A DNA stretch of 59,911 nt from Patescibacteria group bacterium (GCA_038078735.1 JBBTTI010000029.1:1-59911), one strand, 5' to 3'; numbered from the stretch's first letter, positions 34,303 through 39,899 are shown. Notes: a model not told the origin generated them from the letters alone. Program-made: numbers and translations.

Positions 34303-34926
34303 TTAAAATTTGAACGACAAAATACCAATATAAATTTTATCTTCCATTCCTTTCTCAAAAATAATTTCAACTAAGTACTTCTCCCCATTCTTAAATTCTA
34401 ATAAGACAGTAGGAACAGAAAACGGACTGACTTCTTTAGAAAATTTCCAAGCGCTTGTGAATGAAGGGTTTATTATCAAGGGCGACTCAATTTTAGTTCT
34501 TTCAATTACTACAGGGCCTGTTTTGGGAAAGTAGCGATTTTGAGGTTTATCCGAAGTAAATCCCAATAAAATATTATTATCATCGGTTTTGTCGGTTGTC
34601 CCGAGATTTTTTAAAATTAAAAAATATGGCTGATATTCTTTGGGCCAAGAAAGCTCTATTGAATCTTTGGTTTTTTTTAAAAAAATATCTACATCGCCGC
34701 TATTCCCGGTTTGAGGATCGGAAATTTTAACTTTTTCCGGGAAAATTCCTTTTTCAGCTAAAAAAGTCGTGAATCTTTCGAAAGATATCTGCTGATTCAA
34801 ATTAGTGACTGGAATAAGTATCGGCGTAACCTTTTTTTGCCAATTCCAGAAAAAATAGCCGCCAAAAAACAGCAAAATCAGTAAAACTAAATTATTAAGA
34901 GTAATTATTTTTTTAAAATCATTCAT
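34303..34926 (-). CDS. N-terminally anchored hypothetical protein
   Basis: TM segment LVLLILLFFGGYFFW. No recognisable domain. Confidence 0.45.
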   Translation of the reverse strand: MNDFKKIITLNNLVLLILLFFGGYFFWNWQKKVTPILIPVTNLNQQISFERFTTFLAEKGIFPEKVKISDPQTGNSGDVDIFLKKTKDSIELSWPKEYQPYFLILKNLGTTDKTDDNNILLGFTSDKPQNRYFPKTGPVVIERTKIESPLIINPSFTSAWKFSKEVSPFSVPTVLLEFKNGEKYLVEIIFEKGMEDKIYIGILSFKF

Positions 34927-34930
34927 AGAG

Positions 34931-35923
34931 TTATTGGCACCAAAGTTCGCTTAAAACAAGCGCCTGCTGTTGGATCGTCTTCCATGAAGAGCCGTCCCAA
35001 AAATTTAAAAACGGGCAAGCGTTAGGATTCCACGGCCAGCAGTTAGACTGAGGATAATTAAGATTATTATATTTAACCACTCCGCTAAACCCTTTTTCTT
35101 TACAATATTGAGTGGCGTTAGTCACAACCAATGTTGGGTACCCGGATACCCAACCGCTAGTTCCACTACCCGGAATAAGCACGCTTGAAAAATAATTATA
35201 TTTTTGGCAATCAGCAGTGCAATTGCCAATATTATTTAATTGATTCCCGTCATCGCAATTTTCACCAGCCTCCAAAATCCCATTCCCGCAACCGGGAAAA
35301 TTTATGCTGGGCTTTACGCATTGATAGGTTTTAGTCGGACAAGAAAGCGGGGAATAACAACTTTGATTAATGCCCTGAGTGCCGATAAGAGTTAAAGTTT
35401 CTCCGGGATTGCAAACCGGCTGGTAAGTAGTAAAATTTACCGGCGCATTGGGTACACCCCAGCTCTGAGTGGTGCCATCGCATAATCCTTTCCCCTGCAC
35501 ACTGCAGGTAGTATTCTCATAACAAACACAACCATTACACCCCCATCCTCCGCACACACCGCCCCAAAGAGAACCGCCTATAGTTATAGTTCCTGTTACC
35601 TTTCCGCTATTTGAAACATCGCTTGCGCTGTATCCCCCCAACTTCTGGCTGTTTTCAGCTTTCTCGGCATTTAAGCCCGGGCTTACACTGCCATCGCTTT
35701 TTATAGTAACACTGCCAACTATTAAGTCCTTTAGTGTTTTAATAACACCATTAACAATAAAATCGCCCTGCTTAGTCTGAGTTGTCGTGCCGACATTTAT
35801 CGGCGCGTCAACATTGTTATTCGGCGGAGTACCGGTTGGCCCGGTCCAAGCGTAGGCAACAAAACCGGCTAAGAAAAAAGAAGCGATTATTTGCGGGAGA
35901 AAAGATAAAATTTTTTTGAGCAT
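34931..35923 (-). CDS. secreted/anchored Cys-rich protein sharing its N-terminus with the 37797 ORF
   Basis: IIASFFLAGFVAYAWTGPTGTPPNNNVDAPINVG. Cys-rich repeat CGNGILEAGENCDDGN...CTADC. Many further Cys residues. Confidence 0.6.
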   Translation of the reverse strand: MLKKILSFLPQIIASFFLAGFVAYAWTGPTGTPPNNNVDAPINVGTTTQTKQGDFIVNGVIKTLKDLIVGSVTIKSDGSVSPGLNAEKAENSQKLGGYSASDVSNSGKVTGTITIGGSLWGGVCGGWGCNGCVCYENTTCSVQGKGLCDGTTQSWGVPNAPVNFTTYQPVCNPGETLTLIGTQGINQSCYSPLSCPTKTYQCVKPSINFPGCGNGILEAGENCDDGNQLNNIGNCTADCQKYNYFSSVLIPGSGTSGWVSGYPTLVVTNATQYCKEKGFSGVVKYNNLNYPQSNCWPWNPNACPFLNFWDGSSWKTIQQQALVLSELWCQ

Positions 35924-35936
35924 AATGTATTAAAAG

Positions 35937-36353
35937 TTAAACTTTAAAAACTTTCTCTAAGACAAAATCTTTAATTTTAATTGCTCTTTCAATAGCCTCC
36001 TTCGCTTCTTCAAAAGAAAATTGGGGATATTCGCCGGGATAGCGAGTAGCCACATAAAATCCAGTGAGATATTCCGCCTCCCCCATTATTTTAGCAAAAT
36101 CCGCGTCAAGTTTCTCGCATAATTTCACCAATCTGTCTAATTGATGAATTTTAGGAAAACTTTTTTCTTGATAGACTAAATACCCTTTTAAATATTTTTC
36201 GCCCATCTGTTGACTTAAAAAACAAACCGTGCTTGCTGCTCCCTCTCTGTCTTTGAGAATGTCCCGCGCCGAGAGCTCGTCATCACCAGCCTTGGCAAAC
36301 CACTCGCTGGCTAATTTTTTCTTTCCGTTTTTGTTATCTTGCTGATTTTTCAT
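35937..36353 (-). CDS. HEPN-domain protein
   Basis: About 138 aa, helical. YLKGYL...IHQLDRL...ATRYPGE is typical of PF05168-type HEPN. Overlaps the MNT gene by 20 nt. Confidence 0.75.
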   Translation of the reverse strand: MKNQQDNKNGKKKLASEWFAKAGDDELSARDILKDREGAASTVCFLSQQMGEKYLKGYLVYQEKSFPKIHQLDRLVKLCEKLDADFAKIMGEAEYLTGFYVATRYPGEYPQFSFEEAKEAIERAIKIKDFVLEKVFKV

Positions 36354-37766: not shown

Positions 37767-37796
37767 ATTTAAAAAATAAGATTAGAGAAATTTATC

Positions 37797-39080
37797 CTAC
37801 TCCATAGTAAAAATAATATTGTAAAGGGTTATGCTATCATCGCTGTTAAAGGGATTCAATTCAACTTCTACCGCATAATCTTGTCCGTATACAAGACTTG
37901 ATATATTTATACTTGGAGAATTCGGCAGAGGGTACGGAAACGAAGAATTGTAAGATTGTCCTGACTGCCAAGTATTTACAGAAGAGCCGACAAGACTCCC
38001 CGCTTTAAGCCTAAGTATTGGATCTCCAAGATAATTATGTCCACTGAAATTATTAATTCTGATTGTCCCCGTCAAACTAATTTTATTAAGCCCGAGGGTC
38101 TTTTTAAATGGCACTGAAACCACCGAAGTCCAGCCACCTTGATTATTAGCACCTACCACTCCCCGGGCCCCAAAAGAAAATCCTTTTGGCTCAAGCTCTA
38201 CTGCAACGCCACCAACTCTTGCCGTATCTATCAGAAGACCGATAGGAACGCTGTAATAAATTTTAATTCGGATACTGTCTACTTTAGCATTAGACCAGAT
38301 CGTTGGCACCCAAGATGCTATTTGGGCCTGTAGGACTATGCCAAAATCAGATGAGTTTATATCTGCTGGTAACCAAGAAACGCCCCATTTATCAATAGAG
38401 GAGCCGTAGCTCTTTATTTGGTCTGTTTGCGGCCAATATTCAGAAGTAGCTTTATTGCCCCCAGCCAGACTGCCGCCATTAAGAAGCTGCACTATCAAAT
38501 CTTTTGTGTTGCAATAATCTAAATTGGGCGACGAACAGGACGGCACAATGGTATTTGCCCGCTCAATTTCAACTTCAATACCATCTATAACAGCATTTGA
38601 AGGAATTGAAAAACCAAAATTGGCGGCTTTTAAATAATGAGTGGAGGCAAAACCATTTGAATCGGCGATTGTTGATGCCACAGCGCTGGAATCATCGCTT
38701 GTTTTAGCATATAAAGGATTACTCCAGAGAATCCCTGTTGGGGGAGTTTGATCTACTACTGAGTTTGGATTTTTAAAAATATCAAAAGAATCAAAATCTC
38801 CCTCGGTTTTAACCACAAATTTCCCTCCGCCGACATCCAGCTGGCCTTGCGGATTTGTTGTGCCGATTCCCACCTTGCCGTCAAAGATGGCGTCGGAAAA
38901 AGCATGGAAAAGACCGCCCAAGCCGAAAGCGCCGGATTTATATTGAGAAGTATCTCCGACATTGATCGGCGCGTCTACATTGTTATTCGGCGGAGTGCCG
39001 GCTGGCCCTGTCCAGGCATAAACCACAAAACCGGCTAAGAAAAGAGATGCGATAATTTGCGGAATAATTTTTTTGAGCAT
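37797..39080 (-). CDS. secreted/anchored protein, paralog of the 34931 ORF in its N-terminus, with a tail-fibre-like GIGTTNP motif
   Basis: IIASLFLAGFVVYAWTGPAGTPPNNNVDAPINVG, then GKVGIGTTNPQGQLDVGG. The C-terminal 330 aa are unrelated to the 34931 ORF. Confidence 0.6.
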   Translation of the reverse strand: MLKKIIPQIIASLFLAGFVVYAWTGPAGTPPNNNVDAPINVGDTSQYKSGAFGLGGLFHAFSDAIFDGKVGIGTTNPQGQLDVGGGKFVVKTEGDFDSFDIFKNPNSVVDQTPPTGILWSNPLYAKTSDDSSAVASTIADSNGFASTHYLKAANFGFSIPSNAVIDGIEVEIERANTIVPSCSSPNLDYCNTKDLIVQLLNGGSLAGGNKATSEYWPQTDQIKSYGSSIDKWGVSWLPADINSSDFGIVLQAQIASWVPTIWSNAKVDSIRIKIYYSVPIGLLIDTARVGGVAVELEPKGFSFGARGVVGANNQGGWTSVVSVPFKKTLGLNKISLTGTIRINNFSGHNYLGDPILRLKAGSLVGSSVNTWQSGQSYNSSFPYPLPNSPSINISSLVYGQDYAVEVELNPFNSDDSITLYNIIFTME

Positions 39081-39083
39081 AGA

Positions 39084-39899
39084 TTATTTTAAATAATTGT
39101 CCAGAAAATCAATGATTCTTGGATAAAATCCTGGAGATTCTTTAACAAAATTCTGGATTTTACCGTAAAGAATATCTAAATACTCGTGGGCTAAAATATT
39201 TCTTAATTGAGCAAGCCTGGAAAATTCTTCCGACTCTTCTTTGCTAAATCCGATAAAGAAAGCTAAATCAAAGAGCGCGTCTTCATAGCTCCTCGGCATT
39301 TCTTTTTTCTCCGAGGCCAAAATAATCTTGGCGATATCAATCGTCGCATTAAGAATATTTTCTGTCCACCTTTCGACTTCTCTTCTTTTGGGTTTGTCCT
39401 CTTGATATTCCCGAAAAGTTATTCCGGAAAATCTTTCCCTTTCCTTCAGCTCGCTAGTTAAAAAACTCATTCTTTCTAAGGCTCTGGTTTTTTGTTCCGG
39501 GGATAAAGATTTGGCTTTTTGCTTGACTCGCCAAAAATCTTCGGCGAATTTCACAAAATCTTCGGCTTCCAGGCTCTTTTGCAAATAAAGCTCCCAGTAT
39601 AATTTTTTATCCTTAATCGCCAAGGGGATTCCCGTTTTAAAAACGGCGGAAACTAAAGTAGCTGGAGCCATATTCAAACAAATCAAATCCACTTCTTTTT
39701 TAATAATTTTAGAAATCGCCAGCCAAATAGCTGATTCTTTTTGCTCGCTTTTCAAATAAACCGCCACGTCAAAATCTGAATCTTTATTGGCAAATCCCTT
39801 GGCGAAAGAGCCGAATAAAAATGCCAAAACTACTTCCTGTTCATTATTAAAATACTCTTTTAAGGATTTGGTTGTTTTTTCATCCAATTTAGCTTTCAT
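39084..39899 (-). CDS. single-polypeptide fusion of an MNT nucleotidyltransferase and a DUF86/HepT-type HEPN domain
   Basis: N-terminal LAFLFGSFAKGFANKDSDFDVAVYL. C-terminal LAQLRNILAHEYLDI (Rx4H HEPN motif). Confidence 0.7.
   Translation of the reverse strand: MKAKLDEKTTKSLKEYFNNEQEVVLAFLFGSFAKGFANKDSDFDVAVYLKSEQKESAIWLAISKIIKKEVDLICLNMAPATLVSAVFKTGIPLAIKDKKLYWELYLQKSLEAEDFVKFAEDFWRVKQKAKSLSPEQKTRALERMSFLTSELKERERFSGITFREYQEDKPKRREVERWTENILNATIDIAKIILASEKKEMPRSYEDALFDLAFFIGFSKEESEEFSRLAQLRNILAHEYLDILYGKIQNFVKESPGFYPRIIDFLDNYLK

Follow-up and report, generated by a model that had tools for sequence, protein, structure and literature searches.

A lineage-specific insert in the type IV pilus operon of a Patescibacterium is probably a relocated segment of a variable surface-fibre gene array

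What is a 5.6-kb block of toxin-antitoxin (TA) genes and genes for exported proteins doing in the middle of a type IV pilus (T4P) operon? The question is raised by a contig of 59,911 nucleotides (nt) (JBBTTI010000029.1:1-59911, hereafter the window, to the whole of which our coordinates refer), which belongs to a 706-kb, 43-contig metagenome-assembled genome (MAG) of an ultrasmall groundwater bacterium of the Patescibacteria group (GCA_038078735.1, here G000). The closest named matches come from MAGs of Candidatus Nealsonbacteria and Candidatus Portnoybacteria. The operon, on the minus strand, consists of pilM, three small assembly genes, pilB and a response regulator gene, followed by the block and then by pilT, pilC, two pilin genes, a RAYT gene, pilD and four minor pilin genes. 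Nine open reading frames (ORFs), all on the minus strand, lie between the response regulator gene and pilT, at the coordinates given by a first-pass annotation (Table 1). That annotation, a model's reading of the sequence alone, had compared the block to a cassette system for variable pilus-associated or surface effectors. Type IV pili have a role in the host attachment of cultivated Saccharibacteria; to our knowledge, host recognition and attachment by Patescibacteria are largely unknown beyond this role. Here we describe the block as a recent insertion and present the evidence that it is probably a displaced piece of an array of genes for variable, fibre-like surface proteins.

The block is a true, recent, lineage-specific insertion. 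In blastn comparison with G001, a genome of the same genus, window positions 32091-34277 and 39925-46000 match a single contig, at 91-95% DNA identity in the sequence flanking the insert, and positions 34278-39924 are replaced by 2 nt. The block is absent also from G002, the other genome of the genus that was compared, and in both G001 and G002 about 7 nt separate the stop codon of the response regulator gene from the start of pilT. Matches to PilB and PilT were also located in 25 further genomes of the order, at distances of 0.44-1.06 kb from each other, compared with 6.4 kb here. Because the block is missing in G001, G002 and these 25 genomes, a gain in this lineage is the parsimonious scenario. 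The comparison bears out the insert between pilB and the response regulator gene on one side and pilT on the other that the first-pass annotation had recognized, and refutes gene-for-gene conservation of the interval, which is variable. Contigs in the Logan collection from two sequencing runs, X1 (2021) and X2 (2025, a different study), span both junctions with 0 differences: the pilT-p207 junction is covered by contigs spanning 33800-38857, and the junction of the fused toxin-antitoxin gene with the response regulator gene by contigs running from 38828 or 38934 to 40400. Because contigs of independent runs cross both junctions unchanged, the insert is not an assembly artefact. No empty-site joints were found among the Logan contigs, though such contigs drop rare variants. 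The final two residues of the response regulator, at the insertion breakpoint, differ from those in G001. The GC content of the insert equals that of the flanks, and all its genes are co-oriented with the operon and separated by short spacers. We found no terminal direct or inverted repeats bounding the insert, saw no target duplication at its breakpoints, and detected no integrase, transposase or recombinase domain in a Pfam scan of its ORFs.

Two of the nine genes, A and B, encode proteins with a common N-terminal module, which we refer to as the head. In a BLASTP alignment of the two proteins, 46 of 68 N-terminal residues coincide (E 3e-25), and no significant similarity follows, which agrees with the common start and subsequent divergence that had been noticed at first pass. 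The DNA identity of about 88% reported then for the head holds once a 9-nt indel is set aside; an ungapped repeat of 142 nt is 80% identical. An alignment of 39 heads has invariant columns W, P, PP, N, P, Q, K and G and the consensus ..AWTEPT..PP.GNV.APINVG...QYK.GALGVGG.F...S.AIFDGNVGIGTT.P..KL.V., in which the core W-T-x-P..PP..N..AP-I-N..Q-K-G is usually followed by a fibre motif, GIGTT-P-x-x-L-D-V. The head starts with a positive n-region, then about 21 uncharged hydrophobic residues, with A-x-A before the invariant W. Among 126 heads, A, S or G precedes this W in 120 and V, I, A or S occupies position -3 in 112, and none has a Cys near the cleavage site that would indicate a lipobox. Such a start fits the signal-peptidase-I pattern, yet the hydrophobic stretch is long enough for an uncleaved anchor. 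The head is always N-terminal, in proteins of 90-1,184 amino acids (aa) with unrelated C-termini.

A motif search of G000, a check suggested at first pass, yielded five heads: besides those of A and B, there are three on contig C34. With its five copies, its N-terminal position throughout and the unrelated C-termini, the head is a specific module rather than a generic signal peptide. An exhaustive phmmer search with residues 1-80 of B returned 3,378 protein clusters at a threshold of E<=1e-3, of which 315 pass E<=1e-10. No model in Pfam, NCBIfam or PHROGs covers the head, and the same three databases contain no match for B, p207 or the 52-aa ORF of the insert; for A, they give only a Cys-rich repeat. 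Literature searches retrieved nothing on the family, either by motif, which returned unrelated acronyms, or by topic, which returned papers on Saccharibacteria pili. A definition of the head would thus improve the annotation of many genomes, with about 3,400 protein clusters lacking a Pfam or NCBIfam model. Within the order, the family is found in 49 of 121 genomes, at 1-8 copies each (E<=1e-5). In an even sample of the phylum it was detected in 7 of 201 genomes (at E<=1e-8, a stricter threshold than in the order survey), on which count we rejected a phylum-wide distribution. Judging from these searches, the family is concentrated in this order of Patescibacteria. The three genomes of one genus contain 5 (G000), at least 8 (G001) and 0 (G002) heads, from which it follows that the head-bearing loci turn over fast.

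Two observations on the family stand apart. Short head proteins of 87-105 aa, ending in ..G(D/N)I.DK.G..IYN..T.KIER.R.PF, are kept across genomes (Table 1); they are encoded directly before a PKD/GWISF protein and look like a distinct short form rather than truncated junk. Genes for Peptidase_S26 (signal peptidase I) account for 3 of 148 ORFs near heads (for example, at 10980-11561 of L066; L numbers denote fetched loci and C numbers contigs). A motif search detected one case of signal peptidase I beside heads; a dedicated head peptidase in G000 was rejected because the only signal peptidase I motif of this genome is on C24, far from the heads.

The likely nature of the proteins emerges from comparison with fibres of known structure. 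Bdellovibrio bacteriovorus has 21 paralogous surface fibres, the mosaic adhesive trimer (MAT) proteins, in each of which a signal peptide precedes an N-terminal domain that is invariant among them and presumed to reside at the cell surface, whereas the adhesive tips are diverse (Caulton et al. 2024, PMC10769870). Positions 66-85 of the head profile (GNVGIGTT.P..KLDV) match the crystal structure of the Bd2133 MAT shaft (8OND, E 4e-6) and, weakly, other MAT entries. In B, the motif GKVGIGTTNPQGQLDV, present in one copy, is the tail-fibre and MAT shaft motif, in accord with the tail-fibre-like GIGTTNP motif singled out at first pass. P0034, a family member with many GIGTT-type repeats and a Peptidase_S74 end, matches MAT structures 8ON4, 8OML and 8OND as well as a phage long-tail-fibre tip. 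Peptidase_S74 is a trimer-quality-control chaperone; it is present also in a 635-aa family member of L030, and in neither A nor B.

Beyond the head, B is predicted by AlphaFold2 (AF2) to form a jelly-roll at residues 95-280, with a predicted local distance difference test score (pLDDT) mostly >90; confidence is low over residues 32-91. A Foldseek search of the PDB with the jelly-roll recovered carbohydrate-binding modules of family CBM4, legume lectins and the baseplate protein of staphylococcal phage phi812. Among predicted viral structures (BFVD), the top match has 34% identity, a root-mean-square deviation of 2.4 Å and E 2e-17, and further matches include several Caudovirales proteins and a tail protein of an archaeal virus. 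A domain about 40% identical to that of B also opens a 713-aa protein (L075/L076, 10001-12142), whose gene comes immediately after that of Dit in a siphovirus-type tail module. The element was found on 20 contigs, and genes for a sigma factor and an FtsK-like protein are part of it as well. In A, previously described as Cys-rich, one repeat was found, a Cys-rich acidic segment with a single TIGR02232 match (residues 212-240, E 1.9e-5). Protein A has three full-length homologues, at 63-64% identity, which in two relatives are encoded in the slot between clpP and rny.

The likeness to MAT fibres extends to the organization of the family. Both are multi-paralogue families in a bacterium dependent on other cells, both have a constant N-terminal module and exchangeable tips ('tip swapping'), to which the head proteins would add a putative signal peptide and a candidate shaft like those of MAT fibres, and some members here carry the Peptidase_S74 chaperone. 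In all paralogues of the family under study, the invariant N-terminal module directly follows the putative signal, and the diverse tips include an adhesin-type fold, shown for B by the predicted jelly-roll. The differences are also substantial. What is constant in the present family is a peptide of about 45-60 aa, in contrast to the beta-rich domain of about 130 aa in MAT proteins, and we do not claim homology. At 330 and 427 aa, A and B are short, and neither has more than one shaft motif. A small partner gene, for a predicted membrane-anchored protein, is dedicated to each head type; the clpP-rny slot is where the genes cluster, together with the gene of a PKD/GWISF protein and, in this genus, interleaved with TA modules; and the organism is a monoderm-like Patescibacterium, not a Gram-negative predator. 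The first-pass annotation had found no described system to match; MAT fibres, with the phage tail fibres and tailspikes that they resemble, provide the described analogue.

The two types of head genes each have their own conserved small partner, predicted to be membrane-anchored. The partner of A-type genes is p207; in L028 and L029, the gene next to the A homologue on its downstream side encodes a protein that is 63% and 60% identical to p207. The partners of B-type genes, which we denote cc, are 105-110 aa long, with an N-terminal transmembrane segment and three QLKELEALR..PLT.EQ repeats, and are encoded after B-type head genes at two places on C34 as well as in G001 and L028. The 52-aa ORF downstream of B, a possible peptide in the first-pass annotation, is real as a truncated homologue of these proteins: it aligns with them end to end, without 11 transmembrane residues and two of the three repeats. 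The small partners are probably assembly or anchoring factors. The cc partner keeps 46-56% identity while the C-termini of its head proteins differ, and is therefore not a variant-specific immunity protein.

The same combination of heads, partners and TA genes recurs in G000 itself, at a site outside the pilus operon. On C34, the genes for NusA, H+-PPase and ClpP are followed by head350, cc108, AbiEii and DUF6922 genes, head394, cc110, a RelE-like pair, head97, the gene for a 402-aa PKD/Ig protein with GYAWSDNIGWISF repeats, and the RNase Y gene (rny). In G001, the clpP-rny slot is split among four contigs, with the breaks at the repeated heads; it contains at least 8 heads and 6 TA modules, among them a head-cc-VapBC unit and an MNT/HEPN pair. 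L028, from an NCBI relative, has the order clpP, A-like gene, p204, head464, a helix-turn-helix protein gene, B-like gene, cc105, AbiEii, DUF6922 and two more heads, and L029 has A-like gene, p199, head, PKD protein and rny. A distant marine-sediment contig encodes, in order, ClpP, head468, an S74 protein, a PKD protein, RNase Y, a histidine kinase, a response regulator and PilB. Among the 44 annotated head loci of the order, 19 include clpP and/or rny and 21 a PKD/GWISF protein, so that the clpP-rny slot beside the PKD/GWISF protein is the commonest home of the family in the order. The cassette system envisaged at first pass accordingly holds in outline as far as variable surface-protein cassettes are concerned; its tie to the pilus does not, the same pattern being found at clpP-rny in C34, G001 and a relative. 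The slot of G002 contains six unrelated genes and no heads. These genes (L078, G002:C16 5612-11640) include those for a 658-aa protein with a CxxxCxxC-like radical-SAM start, a 351-aa polytopic membrane protein and a 333-aa Cys-rich exported protein.

The heads of the two sites appear to have exchanged sequence. B and a paralogue at C34:14774 are 95% identical over 80 aa. When B is compared with head350, 52 of 58 conserved residues in the interval of residues 31-90 have the identical codon, versus 28 of 64 in the homologous jelly-roll region (Fisher p = 5.6e-8), and near residue 90 the amino acid identity drops from 58/60 to 4/30. The similarity is lower over residues 1-30, where 13 of 24 codons are identical, so that the codon identity is no effect of the 5' end. 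We read this pattern as a gene-conversion tract between B in the pilus operon and head350 in the clpP locus. Given that such a tract links both loci, the head would act as a portable homology block. Head homology did not drive the insertion itself, because the ends of the block are a TA gene and p207.

The presence of three TA-type modules in the insert, claimed at first pass, was confirmed with Pfam, which detects a nucleotidyltransferase-HepT fusion, a MazE-type and PIN pair, and a nucleotidyltransferase and HEPN pair (Table 1). The vapB and vapC ORFs overlap by 14 nt, and this is, by domain content, the type II VapBC architecture of adjacent or overlapping genes for an AbrB/MazE-fold antitoxin and a PIN toxin. 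The MNT and HEPN genes (36334-36720 and 35937-36353) are likewise overlapping ORFs with the two-gene MNT-HEPN architecture; the start codon of MNT is likely the ATG at 36672. The gene at 39084-39899 departs from this architecture in that the nucleotidyltransferase and HepT domains are in one polypeptide. With tblastn, no homologue of the fusion was found in the G001 and G002 loci, in L028 and L029, or elsewhere in G000, so that its origin is unlike that of the other modules of the insert.

In a whole-genome search, the insert was found to contain the only PIN gene of the genome, its only PF05168 HEPN gene and 2 of its 4 Polbeta nucleotidyltransferase genes. About 5 of the 7 recognized TA loci are located within 1.5% of the genome (the insert plus the AbiEii/DUF6922 and RelE-like pairs of C34; p ~1e-8). 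Across the order, where our counts of TA and pilin genes near heads are descriptive only, AbiEii was found in 3 of 148 head-neighbour ORFs, and PIN and HEPN are outside the 25 most frequent families. TA interleaving is thus strong in this genus and in L028, not across the order, and the idea that flanking TA modules are a general trait of head loci has to be abandoned. Because the association of TA modules with heads fails across the order, TA modules are no part of how head proteins work. One repeat near these genes is worth recording: a stretch of about 80 nt just upstream of MNT (36661-36747) has 79-84% matches in G000 (on C36, C9 and C5), in G001 and, at 9 sites or more, in G002, and has the look of an intergenic repeat element or of a promoter region common to TA genes.

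Taken with the insertion, the recurrence of the same units at clpP-rny and the likeness to MAT fibres, we consider it probable that the block is a recently relocated piece of a hypervariable array of surface-fibre genes that encode MAT-like adhesins. A and B would then be exported, tail-fibre-like (MAT-like) members of a large, unannotated, order-centred family, in which the constant N-terminus would fix the fibre to the cell surface or to a constant partner, and the variable C-terminus would bind a surface structure of a host or partner cell. The binding end of B would be the lectin-like jelly-roll common to phage tail proteins, and that of A, a disulfide-rich body. The head DNA, 80-97% identical between paralogues, could serve as a portable recombination site. 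TA modules might persist since the clpP-rny slot tolerates insertions and would collect selfish TA genes, and/or since deletion between two heads would remove an antitoxin gene, so that TA modules between repeated heads would be retained. One segment of the array would have landed between the response regulator gene and pilT, probably by illegitimate recombination. Expression of pilT, pilC and the pilin genes may now depend on internal promoters; besides the promoter-like site before pilT, the promoter scan detected one, by consensus match, before vapB (37605-37577).

On this reading, the proteins are candidate determinants of host specificity, being short and exported, with one constant end, exchangeable binding ends and domains common with phage receptor-binding proteins. 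Change within one genus is fast, as witnessed by the copy numbers, the fresh 5.6-kb relocation and the apparent conversion tract, and the clustering of rare TA modules between directly repeated heads makes the locus a natural case for TA-stabilized repeat arrays. New here are the clpP-rny home with its PKD/GWISF protein, the partners of the two head types, the relocation, the conversion tract and the TA clustering.

Several points weigh against an origin of the block in such an array. The outer ends of the insert are a TA gene and p207, with neither repeats nor a recombinase, so that no mechanism is visible; the order of modules differs between G000 and G001; the vapBC DNA is 79% identical to that of G001, compared with 91-95% in the flanks of the insert; and the donor may have been another lineage rather than the clpP slot of the same genome. 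A stabilizing role of the TA modules is suggested by analogy, and TA genes are rare beside heads across the order. The codon identity of the heads could come partly from selection on the nucleotide sequence. The hydrophobic stretch of the head is long for a cleaved signal peptide and could be an uncleaved anchor. As for a fibre-like nature of A, no GIGTT motif was found in this protein. Structure prediction for both proteins, as proposed at first pass, gave a confident jelly-roll for B and a poor model for A (pLDDT 46), from which no fold search was made.

The location of the block invites the alternative that A and B are dedicated pilus accessories, whose head would dock on the T4P, at the minor-pilin tip in the manner of PilY1, or be exported via the pilus machinery; the C-termini would be interchangeable, pilus-displayed adhesins, and the site in the operon would couple their expression to it. 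Pilus genes are present in 9 of the 44 head loci, and in 6 of these 9 the head is directly beside pilD, pilin genes (minor pilins included) or pilB (Table 1), as it also is beside pilus genes in the contig of family member P0032 (L032). The N_methyl pilins are the commonest Pfam family among the 148 small head neighbours (6, followed by Peptidase_S26 and AbiEii, 3 each); in L030, L037, L050 and L059, the clpP-rny slot is directly followed by (histidine kinase)-response regulator-pilB; the region of P0032 after the head matches the constant region of PilV (Shufflon_N, E 1e-10); and the authors of the MAT study raise a possible interplay with type IV pili (PMC10769870). A functional link with the pilus thus looks plausible. 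However, the heads are without the prepilin G|F-x-x-x-E signal, about 80% of the head loci are away from pilus genes, and in this genus the primary locus is clpP-rny, with the pilus-operon site occupied only in G000. The enrichment of head-pilus adjacency is suggestive only, its p value ranging from 0.002 to 0.14 with the assumed size of the pilus cluster, and co-occurrence is uninformative since T4P are present in 31 of 31 sampled relatives as against heads in about 40% of the order. On balance, we regard a dedicated pilus function as unlikely, if still with a real chance of being correct. Rather less can be staked on a more elaborate combination, taken as a whole, in which the W-T-x-P fibres, their partners and the PKD/GWISF protein would make up an undescribed, order-specific, pilus-coupled surface-display system: either the minor-pilin tip complex would be the docking site of the head or the pilus machinery would serve it, receptor-binding tips would pass between the fibres and phage tail proteins, conversion at the head would reshuffle tips and set host range, and TA modules would be selected as anti-deletion locks between directly repeated heads.

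The block could also be a conventional mobile or defence island, that is, a TA and abortive-infection block carrying surface-protein genes as passengers. It is strain-specific, three TA- or Abi-type modules are found among its nine genes and are otherwise rare in the genome, and repetitive extragenic palindromic (REP)-like hairpins and RAYT genes are abundant in the genome, with one hairpin inside the block. Yet nothing that would mobilize it, be it an integrase, a transposase, terminal repeats or a target duplication, was found at the insert, whose GC content does not set it apart from the flanks; what is conserved across the loci of relatives is the head and partner units, which come without TA genes in L029 and in most of the 44 surveyed loci, and not the TA genes, rare near heads elsewhere in the order. 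We accordingly judge such an island to be quite improbable. A conserved head, a variable tail, a small downstream gene and head-only ORFs of 87-105 aa also resemble, superficially, the layout of a polymorphic toxin system, with the head as trafficking domain, the C-terminus as toxin, the small downstream protein as immunity protein and the short ORFs as orphan modules, in arrays that recombine at conserved 5' sequence. This is very unlikely considering that Pfam, NCBIfam and PHROGs give no match to a toxin family, that the variable part of B has a lectin- or CBM-like, phage-tail-like binding fold, and that the short head proteins are conserved across genomes up to their ..KIER.R.PF end. Finally, a chimeric join caused by the repeated heads might be suspected in a MAG of 43 contigs, the more so as Logan contigs break at head repeats; with both junctions in unique sequence, outside the heads, and crossed by X1 and X2 contigs without a difference, the chance of this is minimal.

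Other systems with a constant end and variable parts resemble the proposed fibre array in some respects. The R64 shufflon, with its pilus protein PilV, has a constant N-terminus, alternative C-terminal binding segments that set partner specificity and an association with T4P, and the match of P0032 to Shufflon_N adds to this likeness. However, A and B have no prepilin signal, and, unlike the real pilins of the window, do not match TIGR02532; the head consensus lacks G-F-T-L-I-E and ends in A-x-A|W, unlike type IV pilins. Moreover, the ORFs of the insert include no Rci-type recombinase, there are no significant inverted sfx repeats, the genes are co-oriented, and each variant is a complete gene with its own head. 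Paralogy, gene conversion and relocation bring about the change here, in place of the programmed inversion of the shufflon. The superintegrons of Vibrio are long, variable cassette arrays with repeats in between, where interspersed TA modules are thought to counter-select large deletions. The locus is similar in its variable cassettes, repeated sequence and interspersed TA modules; it differs in that there is no integrase among the scanned ORFs of the insert and C34, that no attC-like repeats bound the cassettes, and that the repeat is the coding 5' end of the cassette genes, with a stabilizing role that we infer. The vsa, vlp and vsp genes of Mycoplasma form clustered families of surface proteins with a near-identical 5' end, reshuffled by recombination. 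Common to both cases are a small-genome, host-dependent bacterium and a common 5' end followed by divergence; here, in contrast, no head has a lipobox, there is no site-specific invertase, and the variable parts are folded binding domains, not tandem repeats.

Table 1. Features of the insert, its flanks and related loci (window positions, unless a contig or locus is named)
Feature	Coordinates	Strand	Basis or remark
pilT, downstream flank	33194..34264	-	PilT 99% aa identity to G001 PilT
Insert, 5,647 bp, this lineage only	34278..39924		blastn against G001 and G002; breakpoints +/- few nt
Promoter-like TTGTAA-16-TAAAAT before pilT	34299-34272		consensus match only
p207, 207 aa, N-terminal transmembrane segment	34303..34926	-	conserved partner of A-type head genes
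Protein A, 330 aa	34931..35923	-	head (aa 1-~50), then Cys-rich body with one DUF4215/TIGR02232-type repeat
HEPN toxin-type gene	35937..36353	-	Pfam HEPN E 1e-21; 57% identity to G001 C42
MNT nucleotidyltransferase, antitoxin type	36334..36720	-	Pfam Polbeta and NTP_transf_2; 60% identity to G001 C42
Terminator-like hairpin, 12 bp, T-run, after vapC	36749-36776	-	terminator scan
REP-like hairpin between vapC and MNT	36782-36804	-	terminator scan; pair of hairpins, 36749..36804
vapC PIN toxin	36875..37312	-	Pfam PIN E 6.9e-13; 70% identity to G001 C95
vapB-type antitoxin, MazE/AbrB fold	37299..37538	-	Pfam MazE_antitoxin E 2.3e-9; 90% aa identity to G001 C95
52-aa ORF, internally deleted cc partner copy	37608..37766	-	alignment with five full-length partners
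Protein B, 427 aa	37797..39080	-	head (aa 1-90), jelly-roll (aa ~95-280), unmodelled C-terminal third
Head of B	38811..39080	-	signal/anchor, A|W-T-G-P..PP..N..APINVG..QYKSG..GIGTTNP
Fused MNT-HepT gene, 271 aa	39084..39899	-	Pfam Polbeta 12-98 E 2.4e-19; HepT-like 151-255 E 1.8e-16
Response-regulator receiver gene	39915..40280	-	Pfam Response_reg, E 1.5e-24; directly before pilT in relatives
pilB, T4P assembly ATPase, upstream flank	40277..41962	-	collinear with G001, DNA identity 94.7%
Short heads	G000 C34:19169-19462; G001 C32 (L023) 1704-2021, 3653-3925, 3957-4238; L028 7635-7898		
Heads directly at pilus genes	G019, G030, L035, L046, L059, L071		

The REP-like hairpin after vapC belongs to a family, TGTTAGACG-N5-CGTCTAACA, with at least 15 copies genome-wide, including C1:59434, C1:74518, C3:433, C3:44639, C3:64187, five on C9, others on C20, C23 and C28, and C34:9718. 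One copy is located about 400 nt from a stand-alone nucleotidyltransferase gene on C1. As the family is genome-wide, we rejected the hairpin as a marker of the insert boundary.

Elsewhere in the operon (30089-30811 and 30916-31900), a RAYT-type transposase gene is located between the pilin genes and pilD, and the pilin genes are two in tandem. The corresponding interval of G002 measures about 345 nt, with one pilin match, which indicates a second lineage-specific insertion or duplication in the operon. Downstream of the pilus operon (4550-23311), the window encodes giant exported proteins of 1,893, 1,457 and 1,344 aa, along with an ECF (extracytoplasmic function) sigma factor and a possible anti-sigma protein. 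The products of the ORFs at 2090-3382 and 4550-10231 have an identical C-terminal tail of about 110 aa.

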